A stretch of DNA of 34,261 nucleotides from a virus (taxonomy: Duplodnaviria > Caudoviricetes). Where the stretch lies: the IMG/VR virus record IMGVR_UViG_3300030109_001650, positions 1 to 34,261 of that record; one strand, written 5' to 3'. Each line of letters opens with the position of its first letter. The first letter of the stretch is position 1. A program made the position numbers and the translations under genes. Below are positions 1 to 33,999 of the stretch, piece after piece. The notes under the pieces were generated by a model. That model worked only from the letters and a program-made list of their open reading frames with translations, was not told the origin of the DNA and did no database searches.

Positions 1-58
1 GTTTATACCAGATGTATTTATGTCCTAACCTCATTGGATCACGATAATAATCATCTAA
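1..58. repeat. Terminal direct repeat, left copy (circular overlap with 34204-34261)
   Basis: gtttataccagatgtatttatgtcc...tcatctaa matches 34204-34261 at 56/58 positions (T/C at positions 13 and 17). Confidence 0.95.
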
Positions 59-355
59 TGCGTGCATTTTATTTATTTGTTTTTTGTACGTTGGATTAGC
101 CCAATCTACAGTTTGTGTATCATCTAACCCAGCTTCTTTTTTTACAGTGTTATGGTCAGGTATCTCATCTTGTGTAACAAAATGTACACTTTCAAAGTCA
201 CCACTGTCACCACCACCATTGAAACTAACAGCAAAGTAGATAACATCATGCTGTTTCATGAACCTATGAAACTCTGGTATTGAATGTTCTTTGAAAGATT
301 TATTCTGTCTTTCTCTACGTTCTTCCCATGTTTCTTCTTGTTTTGTTGCAGTCAT
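1..355 (-). CDS. 5' part of a DUF6878-like protein spanning the circular junction (188 aa in total, continues to 33992)
   Basis: Manual translation from ATG 355 (RBS AAGGAGG at ~361-367) gives MTATKQEETW...FAVSFNGGGDSGDFE...RDPMRLGHKYIWYK with no stop. It is in frame with ORF 33992-34237. Missing from the ORF track. Confidence 0.85.
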   Translation of the reverse strand, partial: MTATKQEETWEERRERQNKSFKEHSIPEFHRFMKQHDVIYFAVSFNGGGDSGDFESVHFVTQDEIPDHNTVKKEAGLDDTQTVDWANPTYKKQINKMHALDDYYRDPMRLGHKYIWYK

Positions 356-370
356 TACAACCTCCTTTGG

Positions 371-529
371 TTGTGCCTGCCCATCTCAAACCATAATAAA
401 CAGGCACGATTATATCTATACACCATGTATAGAATTCATTAAGGTAGATAGACAGCTGGGCGTCACAGCGTCCCTTACATCCTAGGTCTATCTACCCATC
501 ATGCCAAGCACTGGTACCTTACGTCTTGG
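371..529. other. Intergenic array of four stem-loops
   Basis: Stems gtgcctg/caggcac (373-379/401-407), tctataca/tgtataga (415-422/426-433), ggtagatagac/gtctatctacc (443-453/486-496) and ccaag/cttgg (504-508/525-529). Confidence 0.65.
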
Positions 530-539
530 ACTTACAGTC

Positions 540-896
540 TTAAAATAATTTGTGTTGTTGAATGTTAGAGTAAGCAATCTTATCAATAAGTTTCAGGACG
601 CAACCAGTCCATTCATCTCTCATGCTTAGTTTATGACAACTCCAAATGTTTTTATGTCTACGAGGTATGGCACTCCTAAACTGTAATCTTGTATCCTTTG
701 GACTTATCGTTGCTTGTATTACATCTGGTAAATGTTCATGTACAATACAGCCACAGAATTCCATGCCTGTAGCACTCCATCTAACAGCACGTATATCTAC
801 ATAAATATCTGACTGAGGTATAGACTTGACTTGCTCAAGTGTGCATCTCATATCTATACCTTGCCATTTTACATAGAGTAGTCTATGTATTTTCAT
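540..896 (-). CDS. Hypothetical early protein
   Basis: Track ORF 540-926; the more likely start is ATG 896 (MKIHRLL), which overlaps the upstream stop as ATGA. Confidence 0.6.
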   Translation of the reverse strand: MKIHRLLYVKWQGIDMRCTLEQVKSIPQSDIYVDIRAVRWSATGMEFCGCIVHEHLPDVIQATISPKDTRLQFRSAIPRRHKNIWSCHKLSMRDEWTGCVLKLIDKIAYSNIQQHKLF

Positions 897-1210
897 AAGC
901 CTTTTTCCTTTTCTATATCTAAACATTCACGTAAGCTACAAGGCTTCCAGAATTTATCTCTTTCAATCTTCAATCCCATAGCAAGAGTTGTTTCTTCTAT
1001 CTCATCTATACTTACAGAACCATACTCTGCGTCAGTGATAGAACATACACCCCATGCTATGTTAGTATCTGGATCCAGTTCAGACAGATACCAAGTACCC
1101 AGTCCGATTGGATTGAATAGTTTTACAACACCATCAAATTCTTTAGTACCATCTTGTTGTTGATGGTTCTTAATCATCTTCATGCGTTGTGCTTTCGTTA
1201 GTAGTTTCAT
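893..1210 (-). CDS. DUF2958-like protein
   Basis: Motifs VVKLFNPxG.GTWYLSELDP, AEYGSVSIDEI and IERDKFW resemble DUF2958; RBS AGGAGG lies 5 nt before ATG 1210. Confidence 0.8.
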   Translation of the reverse strand: MKLLTKAQRMKMIKNHQQQDGTKEFDGVVKLFNPIGLGTWYLSELDPDTNIAWGVCSITDAEYGSVSIDEIEETTLAMGLKIERDKFWKPCSLRECLDIEKEKGL

Positions 1211-1322
1211 CATTACCTCCTACTGTTATGACAGTAAATTCCCATTCACCATCTTTGTTTACATAATGCTTAGTGTCACCGCCAAGCTGTTCCAGAACAT
1301 TTATTGTTTTATCTAAGCTCAT
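1170..1322 (-). CDS. Small hypothetical protein (50 aa, MSLDKTINVLEQLGG...)
   Basis: RBS GGGAGGAG (1334-1327) precedes ATG 1322. The track's longer start at 1484 runs through a hairpin-rich region and lacks an RBS. Confidence 0.65.
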   Translation of the reverse strand: MSLDKTINVLEQLGGDTKHYVNKDGEWEFTVITVGGNDETTNESTTHEDD

Positions 1323-1349
1323 ATAGCTCCTCCCTACTTCATTTTCGAA

Positions 1350-1444
1350 GTAAATAAAATATGTTTCGCAAAACCGAGGACATATTTTATTTACGAAGAT
1401 ATCTGACCAGACGATCCATAGTTGAGGTTTCGACAGATATCTTC
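1350..1444. other. Two abutting stem-loops with perfect 15-bp and 11-bp stems
   Basis: gtaaataaaatatgt/acatattttatttac (1350-1364/1380-1394) is directly followed by gaagatatctg/cagatatcttc (1395-1405/1434-1444). Confidence 0.8.
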
Positions 1445-1553
1445 TACACCTTGACTCCTTGGTGCTATACCCAGCCACTGTCATAGTGTTTCAGGGTTTA
1501 AAATATGTTGATGTGCGTACTGAAAGCGAAACTAATTCAGAGGCACAAGCAAA

Positions 1554-1573
1554 GAGTCGACCGAAGCCGACTC
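1554..1573 (-). terminator. Hairpin with a cUUCGg tetraloop downstream of ORF 1587-2060; putative intrinsic terminator
   Basis: The - strand reads gagtcggc-TTCG-gtcgactc followed by tttgctt, 13 nt after the stop codon; the U tract is short. Confidence 0.55.
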
Positions 1574-1586
1574 AATGCAAGATGTG

Positions 1587-2060
1587 TTACTTAAGTAAGT
1601 TTTTTACTTGTTGGTAACTCATGCAATTATCAGGATTGCCTGCCTTTTTCGTATTGTCCTTGATGATAGGATTATACTCTTTGCCGAACGTATCCTTGTA
1701 TAACGATTGTGCGAACACCATGGTTCTTCTACTGACCTCAGCGTTACCAGATGTGTAGACGATAATAGCGCCATGCTTTTGCATAGCTTCGTCTGTTATG
1801 TGGTCGGTAACTGATTTGTGGAAACCCTCTTCTTCAAGGATGTCACGCAATCCAGCTTTGCTTAGTGCTTCAGTGTTTAACCAATAGTTAAGACTCCTTT
1901 TATTGTTGTAAATCAGCTTCTCCAAATAGTCTTTCGCGGGACTGAAATCAGAATCTTCCAGACTATATGGTGAGTTAGGTGAGACACCACACTCGCAGTA
2001 GAAGTCGAATTGGACCTTAACTGCTTTTAAAGAGTCACTTAGTGTTAATTGTTTTGCCAT
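1587..2060 (-). CDS. Hypothetical protein (157 aa) lying entirely within the left arm of the giant inverted repeat
   Basis: Strong RBS AGGAGG 6 nt before ATG 2060, TTGACA upstream, hairpin downstream; no family recognised. Confidence 0.8.
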   Translation of the reverse strand: MAKQLTLSDSLKAVKVQFDFYCECGVSPNSPYSLEDSDFSPAKDYLEKLIYNNKRSLNYWLNTEALSKAGLRDILEEEGFHKSVTDHITDEAMQKHGAIIVYTSGNAEVSRRTMVFAQSLYKDTFGKEYNPIIKDNTKKAGNPDNCMSYQQVKNLLK

Positions 2061-2103
2061 TTTTACCTCCTGCTAGTTAATCTAGCTGTTAAATGGTGCG
2101 AAT

Positions 2104-2195
2104 GTATAAACAATGCACGAAATGATATGTCAAGGACTAGGTCTTCGACTTTGCGTAGCAAATCCTTGACATTCATTCTCGGCATATGTTTTACT
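2104..2195. promoter_or_regulatory. Back-to-back sigma70-like divergent promoters at the hairpin apex
   Basis: TTGACA on - (2133-2128) and on + (2166-2171). The -10 candidates are imperfect: TATACA at a 19-nt spacer on -, TG-t-TTTACT at an 18-nt spacer on +. Confidence 0.5.
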
Positions 2196-2466
2196 CGCCA
2201 ATCCAATTAACAGCTTAGCTTAACAGCAAGAGGTGGAAATGGATTAAAACAAAAACACTAAGAGAGGATATTAAAACGTTAAGTCCAATGAGACTACTGC
2301 GAGAGTGTGTGTCTCGGTACCTAACCACTATATAAACCTGAAATGTGTCTGAAGCTTCTGTCAGTCCCGCCTTGTGAAAGACTGGGGAAGCTTGATTTAC
2401 TCAATAAAAGGGGGCATCATTGTGTTAATAAGCTGAAGCACAAGCAAGGATGTGATGAAGTAAGAC

Positions 2467-2868
2467 ATGAAGAAGATACAGGATTCCCAAATCAGTAACG
2501 ACCAGCTACAGACTAAGCTGACTGCAAAACAGAAGCTATTAGTGGATACACTGGTAGCCGAGGGATGTAGTATGAAAGAAGCTGGTATTCGCGCAGGATA
2601 CAAGGAAAACTCGGCAAGAATATCCGCACACAAGGCGCTACGAATTCCCAAGGTAGCAAACTACTACGCGAATGAGTTACGAATAAGTCTAAATCTGTCA
2701 TCACATCTTGCATTGAAAAGGATTCGGTCCCTCTGCTCTGGTGCCAAGTCTGAATACGTTCAGCTTGAAGCATCAAAGGACCTGCTCGATAGGGCAGGAC
2801 ATAAGCCACCAGAGCAACATCAGCATTTAGTCGCAGGGGATTTCTCCATTAAGATAGACTTGAGTTAA
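2467..2868 (+). CDS. terS: Terminase small subunit
   Basis: N-terminal HTH LTAKQKLLV...EAGIRAGY..SARISAHKALRIPKV and C-terminal SEYVQLEASKDLLDRAG; first gene of the packaging/structural operon. Confidence 0.85.
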   Translation: MKKIQDSQISNDQLQTKLTAKQKLLVDTLVAEGCSMKEAGIRAGYKENSARISAHKALRIPKVANYYANELRISLNLSSHLALKRIRSLCSGAKSEYVQLEASKDLLDRAGHKPPEQHQHLVAGDFSIKIDLS

Positions 2869-3042
2869 GATACCCTGTGGAAAATGACTGATGTAGGACC
2901 GAAACAATTGCATGGGGGTTGAAAAACTGACACACCCAAGATAGCAAACCTATTGCCCACGTAATATTTTCCTTTAAAGTCCGTCCTACCTGTGGTCAAA
3001 TAGTAATGGCGAAAAAATATTTTTTACCGTAGGAGGTATATT

Positions 3043-3135
3043 ATGCCAATGGGAAAAGGAACATATGGATCTAAGAAAGGTAGACCACCAATGAAGAAGA
3101 CTACTAAAACTCCAATGAAGAAAAAGAAAAAGTAA
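3043..3135 (+). CDS. Tiny lysine-rich peptide (30 aa, MPMGKGTYGSKKGRPPMKKTTKTPMKKKKK)
   Basis: RBS AGGAGG at 3031-3036; the stop overlaps the next start (TAATG). Below the ORF-track cutoff. Confidence 0.8.
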   Translation: MPMGKGTYGSKKGRPPMKKTTKTPMKKKKK

Positions 3136-3566
3136 TGGAGTCTTTACTTAAAAGAGGTAAGAAGTTCTATAAAGAGAATGAAACTGCTATCAATGTAGGT
3201 ATGCTATTTATTCCGGGTGTAGGGCTTCTAGGTCAAGGCGTTAAGCATGGTATTAAGTACGCTCTATCAGCTCAAAGAGCCACCGATACATTCAAAGCTG
3301 TTAATAAAATACCAAAGATTAAATACGTACCTCAACCTAAAGGTACATCTGGTAGTTGGCTAACACAAAATAGATTGAATACACAAAGAAGTTTCTTAAA
3401 AGAAAGAGATGTTTATAAGGTTAAATACAAACAATACAGAAAAGAACAATCGGATCTAGCTAATACAAGCATGAAAAAGATGATGCTATACACTGGTACA
3501 GGTTTGGGACTATCAGGAGCTGGTATCTATCAAGCAGGAAAGAAAAATAAGAACAACAGCAGGTAG
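3135..3566 (+). CDS. Basic hypothetical protein with Gly-rich hydrophobic segments
   Basis: 143-aa ORF, translationally coupled, typical codon usage. Confidence 0.75.
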   Translation: MESLLKRGKKFYKENETAINVGMLFIPGVGLLGQGVKHGIKYALSAQRATDTFKAVNKIPKIKYVPQPKGTSGSWLTQNRLNTQRSFLKERDVYKVKYKQYRKEQSDLANTSMKKMMLYTGTGLGLSGAGIYQAGKKNKNNSR

Positions 3567-3583
3567 GGAGTGTATACTAAGAT

Positions 3584-4330
3584 ATGGCTAAAATCAATAA
3601 GAACCTATTCAAAGGCAAACCTAAAGACACTATTATCAAAGGCGTCAATGTATCAAAAGGATTAAGGACTGGTAAGAAAGTTGGGAAGTTTGCATTAGGT
3701 TTAATTACTAAGATTCATCCAGTAGCACGTGTTGGTAGCTTATTGTATAAAGCAGGTCGTGTAGTCTATTTGAGACAACAAACTAGAAACTTAGGCATCA
3801 TAGCTAAAAGGGCATCTGATATCGTCCGTAGAACACCTGTAATGGGCAAAGTTGTTATTCAGCCAGCAAAGGGCAACAAGATTGTTAAAAGGGCAAAAAC
3901 AGGCAATCAGTACGCTAGTATGACCTATAACTATCTAAGGGGTATCAAACGTACTAAAGCATCACCACAGAAACTATTGGCTTATGAAAAAAAGATTCCG
4001 GGTGGTACTATGAAACCATCTAATAATATTCCTATAGGAAAACCTAAAATTTTAACCAATAGATCCACAGTAGCACTGGCTAGGAAAAGACGTGCATTAC
4101 GACAAGAAGCTTCAATTGGTATGGGCATCAAAGGAATTGTTGGACTGGGTGCATACAAAGGTGGCAAGAGATTAACACAAACTCAGTATGGTGCATTACC
4201 ACTAGATAGCAATGTAGCCAGACAAAACTTAATTATATCATCAGTTAGAAAAGCTAAAGGTAAGAAATATGGGACATCTAACTTGACTAAAGACCAAATG
4301 GATTCAATATTTAATAGGTTAAAACCATGA
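3584..4330 (+). CDS. Highly basic hypothetical protein
   Basis: 248-aa Lys/Arg-rich ORF with GGGAG upstream. Confidence 0.8.
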   Translation: MAKINKNLFKGKPKDTIIKGVNVSKGLRTGKKVGKFALGLITKIHPVARVGSLLYKAGRVVYLRQQTRNLGIIAKRASDIVRRTPVMGKVVIQPAKGNKIVKRAKTGNQYASMTYNYLRGIKRTKASPQKLLAYEKKIPGGTMKPSNNIPIGKPKILTNRSTVALARKRRALRQEASIGMGIKGIVGLGAYKGGKRLTQTQYGALPLDSNVARQNLIISSVRKAKGKKYGTSNLTKDQMDSIFNRLKP

Positions 4331-4503
4331 CAACTAAAATGGAGCAACGTGCCAAATGTATAATAAAAAACGAGCAAAAGGAAAAAAGGGCAAGAAGAAA
4401 CCTTGCTGTCAAAGACTTCATAGAATATAAAATGCTTAGAGGTCATAGTAGAGAAACAGCTAGTAAGATGGCACAATCCTTAATCGATGACAATAATTCC
4501 TAA
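4327..4503 (+). CDS. Small hypothetical protein (58 aa, MTTKMEQRAKCIIKNEQ...EYKMLRGHSRETASKMAQ...)
   Basis: Manual translation; ATGA overlap with the upstream stop; fills the gap between two ORFs. Confidence 0.7.
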   Translation: MTTKMEQRAKCIIKNEQKEKRARRNLAVKDFIEYKMLRGHSRETASKMAQSLIDDNNS

Positions 4504-5452
4504 AAAAAGAACCAAGAACCCAGCTACCCCACAAGAGATAGCTACGACCAAACGCAATGCAGCAATCATAGGCAATATATTAAGCTTTGCAGTACCCGTT
4601 GGTTATCTGGGCAATGTGGCTAGGATTATCAAACAAAACAAATCATTTGTTAAAGACTTACGTGCCAATATCAGAAAGACACAAGATCCAAAAGGAATAA
4701 GAGAGATGGATTATAATAATCCTAAAATTATACTAAAAGGCGATGTCTTAGTTAGAAAAGGAAAACTTAATGTCTACAGAGGTCAGGGTACTCCAACACT
4801 ACAAGATGCAATTACTTTATCTTCTACACAAACTTTTATAAAAAAAGGTGCTAGACCAATAGGTAGTCGTGTTAATAAACTATCTGGTAAACAACAGCCA
4901 ATTAATTCTTATAGACCAGAAGTAGCATCTGATAGAATGGCAGCAAAGATACAAGTATCTCAACTTGGAAGATATGCAACAACAGATCCAAGAAGAGGCA
5001 AGATGTACGCTACTATGAAAAGAAAAGGACAGTTAACCGCAGGTGGCGAACCCCAATATGATGCAGTAAGAAAAACATACAGAATTAAAATAGCTGATTA
5101 TTTTAAAGGTTTAAACGCTAAATCAAGAACAATTCGATTTGTTAATAAATCCTTTCCTAAAAATAGAGCAGATGAAATAAAACGAACAAGAGCAAAGATA
5201 TCATTTCCATATGGAGAGCCAATAGATGCAACAAAGTCTAATGTAAGTCTTGATGTCAAACGCCTTTTTAATGTAATACAAAAAAATAGAACATCTATTG
5301 GTAGAACGAGAGCAGGAAATCCGGGAGTCTATCCTGTAGCACCAAGAAATCCTTTTACTGGTAAACAGTTAATTGATAAAGGATATATCTTAAAAAATGT
5401 AGATAAACAATTCTTGATACCTAAAAAACTCGATAGAAAGCTTAGAAAATAA
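4487..5452 (+). CDS. Basic hypothetical protein, possible ADP-ribosyltransferase-like fold
   Basis: 321-aa ORF containing LNVYRG and GRYATTDPRRGKMYA; the fold call is tentative. Confidence 0.7.
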   Translation: MTIIPKKRTKNPATPQEIATTKRNAAIIGNILSFAVPVGYLGNVARIIKQNKSFVKDLRANIRKTQDPKGIREMDYNNPKIILKGDVLVRKGKLNVYRGQGTPTLQDAITLSSTQTFIKKGARPIGSRVNKLSGKQQPINSYRPEVASDRMAAKIQVSQLGRYATTDPRRGKMYATMKRKGQLTAGGEPQYDAVRKTYRIKIADYFKGLNAKSRTIRFVNKSFPKNRADEIKRTRAKISFPYGEPIDATKSNVSLDVKRLFNVIQKNRTSIGRTRAGNPGVYPVAPRNPFTGKQLIDKGYILKNVDKQFLIPKKLDRKLRK

Positions 5453-11747: not shown

Positions 11748-12359
11748 ATGGCAGACAGTAAATTTGATATATGTAGTAAAGCCCTAGTTTTAGTAGGAGC
11801 GAACACTATTACTTCATTTACTGAAAATACAACAGAATCAACAGTAGCAAATCAACTGTATGAATCTACATTAGAAAATATGTTATCTAGATGTAGGTGG
11901 AGATTTGCAACAAAACAACAACAATTATCAAGAGATACAGAAACACCTACAGCAAGATGGTCTGCAAAGTATTCAATACCTGCTGATGCCTTAATATTAC
12001 ATACTGTAACTGTAGGAGACTCTGTTATTGAATATGATAGATACGAGGACTATGTCTTATGTGATGCTTCATCAGGTGATACTGTAGTAGCTGATTTTAC
12101 ATTTCAGCCATCAGAAGCACACTTTCCACCCTATTTCAAACAAGCATTAGTATTTGAACTAGCATCTTTATTTGCTGGTGCAATAGCTAGAAACGATAGC
12201 TTGTCACAACTGTATCAACAAAGAGCAGTAGCTCAACTTGCTTATGCTAAAGCGCAAGACTCACAAGCACAAACAACAAGAAGAGTCGATACAACTAGAT
12301 TTAGAAATAGGAGGAACAGTGGTTCTTTAGGCACAGTTAAAGCCACTGTATCATCATAA
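11748..12359 (+). CDS. Tail tubular protein A (T7 gp11-like)
   Basis: DICSKALVLVG, WRFATK and FPPYFKQAL motifs; position after capsid. Confidence 0.85.
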   Translation: MADSKFDICSKALVLVGANTITSFTENTTESTVANQLYESTLENMLSRCRWRFATKQQQLSRDTETPTARWSAKYSIPADALILHTVTVGDSVIEYDRYEDYVLCDASSGDTVVADFTFQPSEAHFPPYFKQALVFELASLFAGAIARNDSLSQLYQQRAVAQLAYAKAQDSQAQTTRRVDTTRFRNRRNSGSLGTVKATVSS

Positions 12360-14858
12360 ATGCCAATAGCCAGATATCATCAAGCAGATTTTGCTACAGG
12401 AGAAATAGATCCAAAGTTTATATCTAGAACAGATGTAGAGAAATATCGTTCTAGTCTACAAAAAGCTCGTAATGTATTACTTAGAACACAAGGTGGTTTT
12501 GAAAGAAGACCGGGAACATTATTTAGAGCAGACCTAGGCGCAGCTTCTAGACTTGAACCATTTATATTTTCAGAAGACCAAGAGTATGTGTTTGCATTTC
12601 AACATCAAGCATTGAAGATTTATTCAACAGCAGGTGTATTGTTACAAACAATTACAAGTCAACCATGGACATCTAGTAACTACAATGAATTAAACTTTAC
12701 ACAACAAGGCGATACTATGATTGTCTGTCATTCTACGTTTATACCAAAAGTTATTAAAAGAACAGGTGCTACTACATTTACATCTACAGATTTTGCATTT
12801 GATACTAGTTTGAATGGCAAACGTACATATCAACCATATTTTAAATTTGCAGACGATACAGTTACACTTGATGTTAATACAGCATCTGCTGGAACTGGAG
12901 TAATTATAGATGCAAGTACATCATATTTTACATCTGATTATGTTGGTACAAAATTATTATTTAACGATAGAGTAGAAGCAACAATTACTGGATTTACAAA
13001 TGCATCAAGAGTTACTGCTACACTCAATGAAGATTTAGAAGTTGAATTAGATGAAGATCCATTTGCAACACAACAAGGTTCAGGTGTTGTAAAAGTTACT
13101 CATGTAGCACATGGATTAGGTACAGGTATGCAAGTAACTATATCTGGTGCAGAAGACATAATGACTCTGAACGATGCTGATCCTCCTGTAGATGAGGGAC
13201 TTGCTGCTAGTAACTTAAATGCTAATTTTAACATAACCGTAGTAGACGATGACCATTACGAAATAACTGCTGCAAATAGTGACACAGCTACAGAGTCTGT
13301 AGATGGCGGAGGTGTACGTGTTGTTGTAAAATCTCATGCACCTACTAGAAATTGGAAAGAACAAGTTGTATCAACAGTCAATGGATTTCCAAAAGCAATA
13401 GCATTTCATGAACAAAGATTATTTTTTGGTGGTGTTACAAACATTCCAGATTTACTTGCGGGATCTAAAGTAGGACAGTTTTTTAATTTTGATGTTGGTG
13501 ACTCTGATGATTCAGACTCTATACAAATACAAATTGCATCTGATGAAATTAATGAAATAAGACATATATTATCTGGTCAAAGATTAGAAATACTTACTAA
13601 TACAGCAGAGTGGTATTTAAGACCAGCTGTAGGTAAACCGATAACACCAGTTGATATAAGTGTAATTAAACAAAGTAATCTTGGTTCACAGCTATCAGGT
13701 ATTACTAGAAAGTTTGATGGCGGTACATTATTTGTACAAACTAATGGTAAAGTCATTCGATCATATGAATGGGATGGTGGTACAGAACAATATACTGCTG
13801 CACCAATAAGTTTATTATCTAGTCACTTGATACAAAATCCTACTGATTCAGATAGAATAAAAGCACTTAGCGAAAGCGATCAACAGTTAGCATTGTTTAC
13901 AAGTACAGATGGTTCACTTGCTATTTACTCAGCACACAAATTAGAAAACTTAAAAGGATGGGTTAAATGGACAACAGATGGTACATACTCATCAATAGCA
14001 TGTACAAGCAATAATATATATTCAGCAGTAACTAGGACTATAAATTCTGCAACAGTTTATTATTTAGAACAATTTGCTGATACAGCTTTTGATTTACCAA
14101 CAGATATGACAGTAACAAAAACGGTGTCGGGGAGTTACCAACCTCATGGTTCACCCCTTACAAATGGCGCGGTCTCAAGCTCCTCGACACTTATAATTGA
14201 TGGATGTACACAAGCACCACAAACAGGAGAAACCTTTCAGTTTGCTGGGACAGGCACTGTATACACAATACAATCATCTACAGCTACAGGTAATAGCAAT
14301 GAATATGCTATATCAATAAGTGGTGCAGTTAGTCAATCTGATGGCGTAGCGTTACAATTTGTAACAAGCAGAACATTTACAGGATTAAATAGCACACCTG
14401 ATATGCGTGCTAAAACAGTACACGCTACATCAGGATCAACTGAGGGCGGTAATATTAAATACTATGGGAGTGCAACAGTAGATACTAATGGGGTTGCAGT
14501 ATTTGATATTCCTGCAAGTGCTATTGATATTGGTCTAGATTATGATGTCGAAGTACAAACATTGCCACCAATAGTTTTATCACAACCAGCGGCAGGTCAA
14601 GCTGGGTTAATTGGCTACCCTAGAAAAATAGCCAAAGCTATTTTAGAATTATCATCAACATACAATATCAAAGTAAATACTAATGATGTTATAGTACAAA
14701 CAACATCACAGTTAGATACAAACACTACTATGAATAGTTATACAGGTAAAAAAGAAGTACATCTATTAGGTTATAATACAGAACCTACTCTAACTATTAC
14801 TCAAGGTATACCAACACCTATGAGAGTAATTGGCATAACTCAGGAGGTATATTATTAA
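12360..14858 (+). CDS. Tail tubular protein B (T7 gp12-like nozzle)
   Basis: 832 aa; FATGEIDP, GGFERRPGT, FTQQGD and FHEQRLFFGG motifs. Confidence 0.9.
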   Translation: MPIARYHQADFATGEIDPKFISRTDVEKYRSSLQKARNVLLRTQGGFERRPGTLFRADLGAASRLEPFIFSEDQEYVFAFQHQALKIYSTAGVLLQTITSQPWTSSNYNELNFTQQGDTMIVCHSTFIPKVIKRTGATTFTSTDFAFDTSLNGKRTYQPYFKFADDTVTLDVNTASAGTGVIIDASTSYFTSDYVGTKLLFNDRVEATITGFTNASRVTATLNEDLEVELDEDPFATQQGSGVVKVTHVAHGLGTGMQVTISGAEDIMTLNDADPPVDEGLAASNLNANFNITVVDDDHYEITAANSDTATESVDGGGVRVVVKSHAPTRNWKEQVVSTVNGFPKAIAFHEQRLFFGGVTNIPDLLAGSKVGQFFNFDVGDSDDSDSIQIQIASDEINEIRHILSGQRLEILTNTAEWYLRPAVGKPITPVDISVIKQSNLGSQLSGITRKFDGGTLFVQTNGKVIRSYEWDGGTEQYTAAPISLLSSHLIQNPTDSDRIKALSESDQQLALFTSTDGSLAIYSAHKLENLKGWVKWTTDGTYSSIACTSNNIYSAVTRTINSATVYYLEQFADTAFDLPTDMTVTKTVSGSYQPHGSPLTNGAVSSSSTLIIDGCTQAPQTGETFQFAGTGTVYTIQSSTATGNSNEYAISISGAVSQSDGVALQFVTSRTFTGLNSTPDMRAKTVHATSGSTEGGNIKYYGSATVDTNGVAVFDIPASAIDIGLDYDVEVQTLPPIVLSQPAAGQAGLIGYPRKIAKAILELSSTYNIKVNTNDVIVQTTSQLDTNTTMNSYTGKKEVHLLGYNTEPTLTITQGIPTPMRVIGITQEVYY

Positions 14859-21566: not shown

Positions 21567-23378
21567 ATGACTATAGCTAGTGCAAAAAACACACCAAGAG
21601 TATCGTATACTGCGTCTGGTAGCCAGACTGCTTTTACTATCCCATTTGAGTTTTTTAGCACAGGAGATATAAAAGTATTCAATGGAACAACTTTACTCAC
21701 TTATGAAGCAACTCCGAGTGCTGCTAACAAGTACAGCATTTCAGGAACAGCTAGTGCTAGCGATAGTGCTTATGAGTTTGGGGCTGGGGGTACTGTTACT
21801 CTGGGTGGTAGTGGAGCTACTGCTGGGGACATTATTACTATTGTTAGAGATATTACAATAGAAAGAACAACAGACTTTCCAGTATCTGGATCGTTTGATA
21901 TAACCTCACTTAACACAGATTTAGACAAAATATATGCAAAATTAGCTGATATTGACCAACAGTCAGATAGATCAGTTAAATTATTAGATACAGATTCTAT
22001 TGCAGCGACAGTAACATTACCGGCAAAAGCTACCAGAGCATCTAAGGTGCTTACATTTGATAGTGATGGCGATGTTCAAACAACAATCGCTGCCACAGAT
22101 GTAACAACAATTGCTGGTATAGCCAGTGATGTCACCACTGTATCTGGTATCGCTAGCAATGTTACATCTGTTGCTAGTAATTCAAGTAACATAAATACTG
22201 TTGCTGGAGTTATATCAAATGTAAATACTGTTGCAGGAATATCATCTGATGTTACAGCCGTAGCTGGAATATCTTCAAATGTAACAACTGTAGCTGGTAA
22301 AGCCTCATTAATTACATCTGACTTTGCAACTGATATATCATTAGTTACTTCTGATTTTGTAACTGATATGGCATTAGTTACAGCAGACTTTATATCTGAT
22401 GTTAATACATTAGCAACTTCTGATATAGTTACTGACCTTAATTTATTAGCAACATCTGATTTTGTATCAGATTTAAATCAGTTAGCAACAACTGATTTTG
22501 TAAGTGATTTAAATGCTCTAGAAGCAATAAAAGCTAATGTAAACACAGTAGCTGGTAGCATTGCTGATGTTAATAATTTTGCTAGTCAATATCGCATAGG
22601 TTCGAGTGATCCAACAAGTTCACTAGACGAGGGAGATTTATTTTATAATTCAACAAACAATGTATTGAAATATTATGATGGTTCATCATGGACAGCAATT
22701 ACTGCTGGAGGTATTACAAGTCTAGCACAAGATACAACACCTCAACTAGGTGGCAATCTGGACATGAATGGTCAAGATATTGTTACTACCTCTAATGCAG
22801 ATTTAGAGTTAGCACCTAATGGTACAGGTCATGTAACTGTAAAAGGTAACAGTTATCCGGGTGCTATACAGTTTAATTGTGAATCTAATTCACATGGACA
22901 AATAGTAAAATCACAACCACATAGTGCATCAGTAACAAACGAATTAACATTACCAGCTGGGGCTAATCAAGAGATTGTTGGAACAATAGCCACGCAAACA
23001 CTAACAAATAAAACAATTAGTGGATCTAGTAATACGCTTTCAAATATTGCAACATCATCATTGACAGGTACAATCACTAATGCTCAATTAGCAGGTTCTA
23101 TCGCAAACGATAAATTAGCAGGTTCAATTGCAAATGATAAACTGGCAAACTCGTCTATTACTTTAAATGGTAGTACGGTTGCTTTAGGTGGAAGTTCAAA
23201 CATAGCAGCGGGAGCTACTGGTGCTGGTGGGGACGAAGTGTTTGTTGAAAACGAAAGAGTGGTTACAACTAACTATACTTTATCTACTGGCAAATCAGCT
23301 ATGTGTGTTGGTCCACTTACAATTAATTCTGGAGTCGCAGTAACAGTCCCATCCGGAGAGAGGTTAATTATATTATGA
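21567..23378 (+). CDS. Tail fibre protein with T7 gp17-like N-terminal anchor
   Basis: PRVSYTASGSQTAFTIPFEFF N-terminus, VTTVAG-type repeats, DTTPQLGGNLD motif. Confidence 0.9.
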   Translation: MTIASAKNTPRVSYTASGSQTAFTIPFEFFSTGDIKVFNGTTLLTYEATPSAANKYSISGTASASDSAYEFGAGGTVTLGGSGATAGDIITIVRDITIERTTDFPVSGSFDITSLNTDLDKIYAKLADIDQQSDRSVKLLDTDSIAATVTLPAKATRASKVLTFDSDGDVQTTIAATDVTTIAGIASDVTTVSGIASNVTSVASNSSNINTVAGVISNVNTVAGISSDVTAVAGISSNVTTVAGKASLITSDFATDISLVTSDFVTDMALVTADFISDVNTLATSDIVTDLNLLATSDFVSDLNQLATTDFVSDLNALEAIKANVNTVAGSIADVNNFASQYRIGSSDPTSSLDEGDLFYNSTNNVLKYYDGSSWTAITAGGITSLAQDTTPQLGGNLDMNGQDIVTTSNADLELAPNGTGHVTVKGNSYPGAIQFNCESNSHGQIVKSQPHSASVTNELTLPAGANQEIVGTIATQTLTNKTISGSSNTLSNIATSSLTGTITNAQLAGSIANDKLAGSIANDKLANSSITLNGSTVALGGSSNIAAGATGAGGDEVFVENERVVTTNYTLSTGKSAMCVGPLTINSGVAVTVPSGERLIIL

Positions 23379-29539: not shown

Positions 29540-29864
29540 ATTCTTCCCAGTCGATAGATTCATACATTTCTTCCCATGTAGATAACAGATACTCTTCAGT
29601 ACCATACTTAGCTTCAAAGCTACGTCTACCCATACCATGATAACCCTTGTTACCACGATGATGGTCAACACATAAAGGTATACACTTTACATTTCTTTGA
29701 GACATACCCATACCCTGCCTTAAGTGATGTATCTCAGTAGGTGTAGTCTGTTTCTCTCCTGAGTCTCGACAAGCAATGCATCCAGTTTCAGCCATCCTTT
29801 GATACAAAGCTTGTCTTTTGTTTTTGATTACTATAGATAATCTTCTATCTTTCTTGCTTACCAT
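29532..29864 (-). CDS. Ref-like (recombination enhancement) HNH nuclease
   Basis: GCIAC, EIHH.R.G.GM, IPLC..HHR and G.H....FE.KYG.E..LL motifs. Confidence 0.85.
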   Translation of the reverse strand: MVSKKDRRLSIVIKNKRQALYQRMAETGCIACRDSGEKQTTPTEIHHLRQGMGMSQRNVKCIPLCVDHHRGNKGYHGMGRRSFEAKYGTEEYLLSTWEEMYESIDWEEYY

Positions 29865-30069
29865 CTTGGCTAACTAAGGTAATATTCCTTTGCATATTTG
29901 GTTTCATGTCTACGTATCCTAATACATATAATTTTTTTACTATCTTATGTGCGTGGGATTTACTGCTTAGCCCAACCTCATCAGTAATTTCCTGATAGGT
30001 TGGACTAACACCATGCGTGTCCAGATAGTTTTCAATATGACTAAGTACTGCCAATTGTAAATGTGTCAT
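29845..30069 (-). CDS. LexA-like winged-helix DNA-binding protein (no protease domain)
   Basis: MT..Q..VL..I......G.SPTY.EI...VGL.SKS..H..V..L...GY pattern; likely start ATG 30069. Confidence 0.8.
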   Translation of the reverse strand: MTHLQLAVLSHIENYLDTHGVSPTYQEITDEVGLSSKSHAHKIVKKLYVLGYVDMKPNMQRNITLVSQDGKQER

Positions 30070-30070
30070 T

Positions 30071-30481
30071 TTAGAATGGAACATCATCACCAGATGGCTT
30101 GGCTTTGAATGGATCTACACTTTCTTTGCTTGATGATTCTTCATCACGTTTGCCTAGAAAGATAACATCATTTATTTTTACACTAGGTACTCTGTTGCCA
30201 TCTTCTTTTTCCCAGTAGTTAAATGTACCAGATACGTGTACTTGTTTACCTTTGGTTAGATATGGCATGACTGCATCTATCCTAGACATAGGGTTCTCTG
30301 AATAACTATTAGGGAACATGGCACAGTTGTGCCACATAGGTGCAGTTTGTTTTGTGCTTGGATCATAAGTATCAGTAGCTAGGGAGAAGACAAGCATAGA
30401 GTTACCATTACGTAAATCTTTTAGCTCAGCATCTTTACCTAGTCTACCGATAAGTCTAATCTCACATAGTGAGTTAGGCAT
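30071..30481 (-). CDS. ssb: Single-stranded DNA-binding protein
   Basis: LIGRLGKDAEL, FSLAT, WHNC, LTKGKQVHVSG and acidic tail DDVPF. Confidence 0.93.
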   Translation of the reverse strand: MPNSLCEIRLIGRLGKDAELKDLRNGNSMLVFSLATDTYDPSTKQTAPMWHNCAMFPNSYSENPMSRIDAVMPYLTKGKQVHVSGTFNYWEKEDGNRVPSVKINDVIFLGKRDEESSSKESVDPFKAKPSGDDVPF

Positions 30482-33642: not shown

Positions 33643-33673
33643 TTGTTCTATTATTGTACTACATATAAGCTAT
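33643..33673 (-). promoter_or_regulatory. 31-bp repeated promoter/operator, copy 2
   Basis: The - strand reads ATAGCTtAtAtGTAGTACAATaATAGAACAA; intergenic, upstream of ORF 33378-33623. Confidence 0.7.
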
Positions 33674-33999
33674 TTGAGGTAGCCCTTTCGCATCCATGAT
33701 TGGATCTGTATTGAATCCAGCCAGTCAGATACCTTTGGAATGTAACCACAATCTTCAGTTATATGTCGCTCAGCTATTAATCTTACAGGAACTTTACGTC
33801 CATCACTATTGGTTATCGTAGTGCCGAACACTTGTTCACACATAAAGCAACCCTCAGTGTGATGTCGCAAAGCCCTATGTTTTACAGTAGCTATATGTTT
33901 CTTACTATCATCAAACCAATCATGAATGGGTTGGTAATCCTCTGGGATTCCGCCCCATTTCTGGACTGATGATAGCGCATGATGATAACAATTAGCCAT
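33670..33999 (-). CDS. DUF6915-like protein
   Basis: HHALSS..KWGG.PEDY..IHDWFD.SK, HRALRHH.EG and VPVR.IAE.HI.ED.G.IP...DWL motifs. Confidence 0.85.
   Translation of the reverse strand: MANCYHHALSSVQKWGGIPEDYQPIHDWFDDSKKHIATVKHRALRHHTEGCFMCEQVFGTTITNSDGRKVPVRLIAERHITEDCGYIPKVSDWLDSIQIQSWMRKGYLK

Follow-up and report, generated by a model that had tools for sequence, protein, structure and literature searches.

The window, i.e. the whole stretch of 34,261 nucleotides analyzed here, represents an apparently complete phage genome of 34.2 kb with a 58-nt repeat at its ends. Genes for a T7-like virion are located on the + strand from the terminase small subunit gene terS (2467..2868, +; PF03592) onward, and the largest protein (1262 aa) matched an internal virion family. 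The early gene block is located on the − strand and includes genes for DUF6878 (83-358, −), DUF2958 (893-1213, −) and DUF6915 proteins (33670-33999, −), a LexA-like repressor (29845-30090), a DnaT-like initiator, a YqaJ exonuclease, and an SSB. None of the 47 ORFs scanned matched a primase, helicase or polymerase, and the phage proteins searched gave no match to an RNA polymerase family. Among cultured phages, Pelagibacter phage EXVC031P Hodr is most closely related (terL 80%, terS 60%, capsid 81%). Elsewhere in the genome, a tiny basic ORF (3044-3136, +) draws 10- to 100-fold more contigs of other phages than its neighbors, and the tail-fibre gene (22092-22514) contains degenerate repeats of 30-36 nt. 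Also, two adjoining hairpins of 40-50 nt (z ~ −4) are present at 1350-1443, ahead of the second early unit, and might form another structured promoter or operator.

The first early gene (1587..2060, −) encodes a protein of 157 aa. It is preceded by an RBS (2066-2071, −) and a small 5′ leader hairpin (2072-2086, −), and followed by an intrinsic-terminator-like hairpin with a UUCG loop (1554..1573, −). A long helical hairpin was predicted for the protein (pLDDT 79), which groups with the first genes of the Hodr type. Searches of Pfam, PHROGs and PADLOC, of the PDB using Foldseek, and of Atlas gave no match; VIA-align returned generic coiled-coil matches only (top Z 9.6, rmsd 2.0, 80 residues), and the matches in BFVD were unnamed or uncharacterised phage proteins. 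A Gam-like inhibitor identity was considered and found no support.

The rod at the divergence of early and late genes

Over positions 1524..2766, alignment and minimum free energy (MFE) folding revealed a bulged fold-back rod of ~1.25 kb, whose folding strand is probably the + strand, as judged from relatives. Its left arm (1524-2140) and right arm (2163-2766) are 68% identical (alignment, E = 3e-62) and form a stem of ~600 bp with many small bulges. A preliminary description of the locus had listed nine exact complementary blocks of at most 15 bp; all of them were recovered (9/9; sums of inner coordinates 4288-4307), and 15 bp is the longest perfect run. The weak pairing described out to ~1451/2817 was not reproduced, as background level is reached ~80 nt beyond the first-gene stop codon. 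Permissive alignment scoring over-extended the rods and was not used. RNA-library contigs from two studies, whose libraries may hold DNA, overlap the first gene (1709-2068 and 1693-1949); the right arm is uncovered among the pieces listed, where lack of cover is no evidence.

MFE values were −591 (+) and −556 (−) kcal/mol with RNA energies and −323 (+) and −310 (−) kcal/mol with DNA energies. Comparison with shuffled sequences, as proposed in the preliminary description, placed the fold far outside the shuffles. The DNA fold of 1501-2790 reached −305.8 kcal/mol vs −139.5 ± 5.8 kcal/mol for 12 dinucleotide shuffles, and for the inner 511 nt (1900-2410) z was −23.5, with 0/100 shuffles equally good. 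In codon-preserving nulls (300 each), the part of the rod in which coding sequence pairs with coding sequence scored 105 vs 20 ± 3 with both genes permuted, 23 ± 5 with terS alone permuted, and 51 ± 9 (maximum 101) with the early gene alone permuted; the whole rod scored 265 vs 78 ± 8. The self-alignment score of the rod was 507 vs 25-47 in 11 other windows of the genome, where it is the sole structure of its kind. Rfam covariance models gave 0 matches at E ≤ 1 in 1-5000.

A fold-back chimera of the assembly, already deemed unlikely in the preliminary description, can be rejected. The arms are just 68% identical, and the rod is present in independent contigs and in the cultured Hodr, where it occupies positions 11942-12635 of the record. 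Contigs from other runs span it with 38 (X7, 1300-3075) and 140 differences (X8, 859-3738), and L001 and L089 span it as well. The rod is real and under selection.

Distribution and evolution of the rod

From 80 terS loci, 11 with less than 750 nt of upstream sequence were dropped, so that a redundant set of 69 testable loci was obtained. A rod was scored at a strict threshold if its apex was located 150-900 nt upstream of terS codon 18. Thereby, rods were detected in 47/69 testable relatives, and compensatory changes extend into terS codons. The remaining 22/69 relatives carry none at this threshold, several of them (L009, L018, L028) despite a homologous first gene, so not every lineage needs the rod. 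Weakly homologous first genes without a rod were noted in these and in L030 and L055, some of them with AT-rich leaders; such relatives are natural controls that may show what the rod substitutes for. For most tests described below, 26 hand-picked representative lineages were used. Outside this group, no comparable rod was found in 10-12 kb around terL of MEP301, VA-RY-3, Pmp11, HTVC111P, Mwe-JY08 and Y3, in the whole Vibrio phage 434O48-1, or at the ends of HTVC035P, and HTVC010P has a weak AT-rich symmetry of 120 bp only. The rod is thus not general to this virion type.

The constant part of the rod is its left arm, which comprises the leader, the first early gene and, in full-length rods, the terminator. 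Across relatives the apex is located ~85-170 nt upstream of the first-gene ATG, and a terminator-like hairpin directly follows nearly all first genes. In the full-length rods (window, L191, L192, L032, L033, L077, L091), pairing reaches background 40-80 nt past the first-gene stop codon, and the rods end 32-72 nt past the gene end, just beyond the terminator hairpin; L072 was left out of this comparison because its contig stops 35 nt after the stop codon. Shorter rods retain the leader side, most of them through RBS and start. The distance from apex to terS varies from ~370 to ~820 nt, while the rod end stays at the terminator. The right arm is variable. In the clade of the window, and weakly in Hodr, it consists of a non-coding dead copy plus terS; in L032-34, L072, L077 and L091 the left arm pairs with the non-coding dead copy alone, and the rod ends before terS. 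The preliminary description had stressed that terS is an old essential gene; as a pairing partner it is dispensable in these lineages, and terS is incidental to the rod.

In the window, the non-coding part of the right arm (2163..2466, +) repeats the early leader and the 5′ half of the gene in inverted orientation. The copy is dead: its RBS and ATG (2239) are retained, but a stop follows at codon 3. The first ~100 codons of terS pair with the 3′ half of the first gene and its terminator. The terS genes of relatives do not pair with the left arm of the window (best 25 vs 105), so the fit of terS is lineage-specific; as its synonymous sites fit the partner arm, the pairing was rebuilt in the phage.

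Double changes at paired positions were in excess between the window and L191 (44 observed vs 18 expected; 33 Watson-Crick), the window and L192 (55 vs 26; 36 Watson-Crick), and L032 and L033 (24 vs 4.2; 23 Watson-Crick). For the terS-coding part alone, 19 vs 8.5 expected (L191) and 22 vs 10 expected (L192) were counted. Among 21 other pairwise comparisons, most, not all, showed a compensatory excess, which was non-significant in several pairs (L002/L003, L002/L006, L077/L072, L026/L035). Concerted changes of this kind can also come from template switching between the arms. Covariation and codon-preserving nulls agree that pairing is kept across coding sequence, as had been proposed. The accompanying argument, that a decayed duplication could not easily explain a rod involving an old essential gene, did not stand: a dead inverted copy of the early unit can be seen in the non-coding part of the right arm, which therefore likely arose by duplication, with selection maintaining the pairing.

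Downstream of terS, a conserved non-coding motif (2914..2983, +) consists of a G-run and an A-run followed ~50-60 nt further on by a AAGGTTCG-like sequence. It is present after terS in most relatives and represents a candidate packaging or genome-end signal. Contig ends from all runs gave no pile-up marking termini. Contig starts 0-300 nt upstream of terS codon 18 numbered 9 vs 3.2 expected and were scattered, and 0/42 motif-bearing stretches start within 300 nt upstream of the motif. The passages on phage termini in PMC7111524 hold no data for this clade.

Folding strand, candidate promoter signals and plasmid homologs

Counting G-T against A-C mismatches had been suggested as a way to identify the folding strand. 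The window itself is neutral in this respect (18:18, in another count 14:15, i.e. no strand bias; its isolated mismatch set of 19 sites is uninformative), and it is the relatives that point to the + strand. Among the 26 lineages, the + strand outscored the − strand in 21 and scored lower in 4. The ratio of G.T to A.C was 234:67, and 119:64 without L072 and L077, in which it was extreme (57:4 and 64:3). Control windows favor the template strand too (64 vs 9; background composition), which weakens the sign test; since a small bias in this direction is generic, L072 and L077 carry most weight. As the first gene uses the + strand as its template, folding of this strand gives the arrangement that transcription of a folded single strand requires.

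To distinguish DNA from RNA, 294 isolated mismatches from 24 lineages, partly non-independent, were fitted. Log-likelihoods were −292.7 with DNA energies, −315.6 with RNA energies, and −323.0 for the null. Beyond base-composition and transition terms, DNA energies added +27.6 log-likelihood units and RNA energies +1.4, and the advantage of DNA persisted without L072 and L077. Mismatches in the phage set are biased to stable types, A.G being far above A.C (33:6), and transitions are not enriched. The plasmid fold-backs used as positive control (770 sites) gave no discrimination (+1.1 for DNA vs +0.2 for RNA after controls), and with energies alone RNA fitted them better than DNA. From the mismatch statistics across relatives, we infer that the + strand folds, and that it does so as DNA.

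The Y-shaped apex (2141..2162, +) bears two mini-hairpins, one of which ends in a C(GTA)G triloop, a loop type that is stable in DNA. Next to it, a −35-like TTGACA in the left arm (2128..2133, −), a candidate promoter box, is paired with a TTGACA in the right arm (2166..2171, +), which would belong to the non-template strand when folded. Apex zones contain 6 C(GNA)G hairpins on the + and 3 on the − strand with 0.6 expected, and no C(UUCG)G in the lineages examined; terminator zones contain 4 C(UUCG)G on the mRNA strand, and all of these counts are small. Promoter-like sequences were scored using an approximate weight matrix based on E. coli frequencies. With this matrix, the best full matches of the window scored 11.1 in the right arm (18-nt spacer) and 8.5 in the left arm (19-nt spacer). 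The −10-like hexamer was better in the right arm in 14 and worse in 8 of the 26 lineages (p = 0.011), a modest difference, with 18 vs 14 in the coding control of this paired test. Many lineages have a left-arm bulge and then a right-arm insertion a little upstream of the RBS, yielding a −10-like hexamer in the right arm only in L023, L032, L014 and L077; the window has no such right-arm-only −10 (6.0 vs 6.4). The one sigma-70-like site on the + strand in 1200-3200 is at chance level. The promoter that follows beyond the rod in the Hodr group is of the canonical duplex type. A canonical TTGAC-17-TAAT promoter directly past the first terminator was observed in L002, L005, L006, L010, L011, L020, L047 and Hodr; its spacer holds a conserved AGAACAAA motif that might serve the LexA-like repressor as operator.

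When 1.84 billion proteins were searched with a profile, 59 matches were obtained, two of which have a C-terminal PF10686 (YAcAr/SLOG) domain. The phage family aligned with the N-terminal domain of DUF2493 (HHalign 98.6%, E = 7e-16), and DUF2493 N-terminal domains were matched in 86/86 cases at 28-71 bits, compared to at most 7 for reversed controls. As the window protein itself has no direct match to the DUF2493 profile (E = 5.9), its link to DUF2493 runs through its phage family. The N-terminal domain alone is shared; a SLOG domain is absent from the 157-aa protein (no Pfam match).

DUF2493 homologs are present on 696 plasmid records, 440 of them typed conjugative. In 4/8 plasmids fetched, the gene points towards mobC or a relaxase gene within 9 kb, and several of the eight have ssb, ParB, ArdC-like, DUF932 or DUF6878 genes as neighbors. 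DUF6878 is common to the phage early block and the plasmid DUF2493 neighborhoods. A template-strand fold-back over the gene start was found in 77/78 DUF2493-related loci of alphaproteobacterial conjugative elements, which are related to one query (68-98% identity) and not independent. The median score was 108 vs 32 in controls, and where the score was at least 60 (66/76 loci), the fold-back extends into the ~925-nt gene by ~640 nt (median). In L103, the 3′ portion of the upstream toprim gene provides the other arm. Fold-backs at DUF2493 genes extending 300-900 nt into the gene were noted in L103:8300-9430 and in L111-L190, and further ones upstream of DUF736 and other genes (L103:~11870 and ~13430, L106:~10910, L105:~7910, L104:~11510, L110:~12470). 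In the plasmids, the fold-back strand would be the transferred strand. By these comparisons, a homologous gene with the same fold-back architecture resides on elements of a class known to enter cells single-stranded.

Function of the rod and comparison with known systems

Four roles had been proposed for the rod: a folded ssDNA replication or priming origin, an ssDNA-active transcription unit, a packaging-initiation structure, and a rod-like read-through RNA. The ssDNA-active transcription unit is the one best supported; the rod boundaries track the first-gene unit, terminator included. More precisely, we regard the rod as an extended Frpo-type single-stranded-DNA transcription unit, with a probability of roughly 0.6. 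When the + strand is single, it would fold and present host RNA polymerase with a duplex promoter and a paired template. The first protein could thereby be made at once from the fold, and transcription would stop once the DNA is double-stranded. Pairing across gene and terminator would supply the non-template strand; by analogy, it may release the mRNA and let the terminator work, and short bulged helices may limit cruciform extrusion and deletion in the duplex state. Transcription on the fold is itself proposed by analogy. The work of Masai and Arai from 1997 reportedly supports the rebuilding of the Frpo promoter on ssDNA. As described in passages of PMC9849209, PMC12672017, PMC11541004 and bioRxiv 10.64898/2026.01.09.698686, Frpo hairpins rebuild a promoter on incoming ssDNA and are silent after conversion, and the expression that they drive is early and transient (PMC9849209, PMC12672017). 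Transcription of bare ssDNA leaves RNA:DNA hybrids, as the passages on N4 vRNAP in PMC4496689 show.

The early genes read away from the terS side and the conserved motif follows terS, so that no more than 1.5 kb may separate the rod from the first-entering end. On the likeliest route, the virion DNA would enter rod end first, the 3′ end of the + strand lying on the terS side, and the + strand would be exposed by host 5′-3′ resection or packaged already folded. A gene-length fold-back under selection, shaping terS codons, would mean that the DNA of these phages is single-stranded for a time, on entry or shortly afterwards. The general view that tailed phages inject duplex DNA counts against an ssDNA reading. 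We advance only tentatively, with the odds somewhat against it, the full scheme in which this widespread marine podovirus clade delivers its first-entering end as a kilobase-scale single + strand that folds and transcribes a plasmid-related establishment protein. Equally tentative are its consequences, namely a self-made duplex gene, the lack of a free blunt end, and a conjugation-style program in a nominally dsDNA tailed phage.

Alternatively, the fold could serve DNA metabolism, as a single-strand origin primed by RNA polymerase, as a hairpin that caps the entering end against nucleases, or as an intermediate of terminal-repeat duplication or packaging. The rod adjoins terS and the conserved post-terS motif, the DNA-type mismatch spectrum fits equally, and the 47 ORFs offer only a DnaT-like initiator, SSB and YqaJ exonuclease and no primase, helicase or polymerase. 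Priming of replication and a block to conversion are likewise ascribed to Frpo in passages of PMC12672017 and bioRxiv 10.64898/2026.01.09.698686. As the boundaries track the transcription unit rather than terS or the motif, and the same gene family bears the fold-back on conjugative elements, we consider this unlikely as the main function; it is compatible with a transcription unit and not exclusive.

The + strand might instead be read through into an RNA rod, antisense to the first gene, which sequesters the terS leader or silences the early gene. The better RNA MFE on the + strand (−591 vs −556) would agree with this, the G.T excess suits G-U pairs, and the plasmid control failed to separate DNA from RNA. 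The phage set, however, is fitted better by DNA energies, with 33 A.G vs 6 A.C mismatches, the apex loops lack UUCG, the rod stops short of the terS RBS in several lineages, and the sole sigma-70-like + site in 1200-3200 is at chance level, which makes an RNA rod improbable.

That the rod is an inherited or duplicated relic of little present function, its arms kept alike by template switching, appears very improbable. In its favor are the dead inverted copy in the right arm, a gene family and a fold-back that are common to plasmids and could have been imported together, and the 22/69 relatives that do without a rod. Against it, the synonymous sites of terS are fitted to the partner arm (105 vs 23 ± 5) and terS of relatives does not pair with the left arm of the window, so this phage rebuilt the pairing; moreover, the mismatches lean to stable types with transitions not enriched, and the rod ends coincide with the terminator. 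Least probable is an N4-style cruciform that exposes the template hairpin from supercoiled duplex, with no true single-stranded stage: N4 early promoters are supercoil-extruded hairpins needing a C-G-closed G-N-A loop (passages of PMC4496689), as present in the window apex, but these hairpins are small and depend on a virion polymerase, an enzyme not found here. Given an arm identity of ~68% and no helix above 15 bp, extrusion would cost each strand about one third of its pairs, and strand-biased mismatches disfavor the second arm.

In the literature searched, mainly open-access texts without supplements, we found no account of such a rod in tailed phages, nothing on Hodr, and neither DUF2493 by name nor fold-backs at DUF2493 genes. 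If the reading as a single-stranded transcription unit is true, there is an unrecognised single-stranded stage in infection by these tailed phages, and an unstudied protein domain is tied to the earliest step of phage infection and to alphaproteobacterial conjugation. With the SAR11 phage Hodr as a cultured carrier, this reading is testable now.

HDV, viroids and Obelisks are circular RNA replicons that form an unbranched rod, ~70% paired, including coding sequence. Unlike these, the locus is part of a 34-kb phage DNA, has DNA-like mismatches, and has no Rfam match. Early promoters of phage N4 resemble it in being template-strand hairpins with a C-G-closed G-N-A loop at the earliest genes of a tailed phage (passages of PMC4496689), and differ in being short, supercoil-extruded and read by a virion RNA polymerase, compared to a stem of ~600 bp here. 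The plasmid fold-backs at DUF2493 genes share a homologous domain, a template-strand fold deep into the gene, and coding-to-coding pairing with an upstream gene. They reside in a plasmid or ICE, have a toprim partner and carry a fused SLOG domain, while the phage gene corresponds to the DUF2493 N-terminal domain alone.

The preliminary description knew of no standard annotation class for such an element in tailed dsDNA phages; the single-stranded plasmid promoters Frpo and ssi are a close class. That host RNA polymerase uses long fold-back promoters is documented for conjugative plasmids in passages of PMC9849209, PMC12672017 and PMC11541004. Frpo1 and Frpo2 of F, ssi1-3, and the class 2/3 ssDNA promoters of ColIb-P9/pESBL are described there as imperfect template-strand fold-backs upstream of a first-expressed gene, and class 2/3 promoters have no sequence homology to Frpo/ssi (passages of PMC12672017). 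A stable imperfect template-strand stem-loop is present in the phage as well, its strand being taken from relatives with the window alone neutral, and the family of the phage gene occurs in plasmid regions upstream of mob genes (4/8 plasmids fetched). The rod would thus work like Frpo in a different context, as it is located in a phage genome with T7-like virion genes and not in the leading region of a conjugative element. Frpo-type hairpins are intergenic on conjugative elements and were searched for at 50-350 bp (passages of PMC11541004), whereas the phage fold of 1.25 kb spans a whole gene and its terminator, recruits terS codons, and has a candidate −10 only. The plasmid elements extend hundreds of bases into coding sequence; new in the phage are the gene-length extent up to the terminator, covariation inside terS, a cultured carrier, and gene homology between phage and plasmid.
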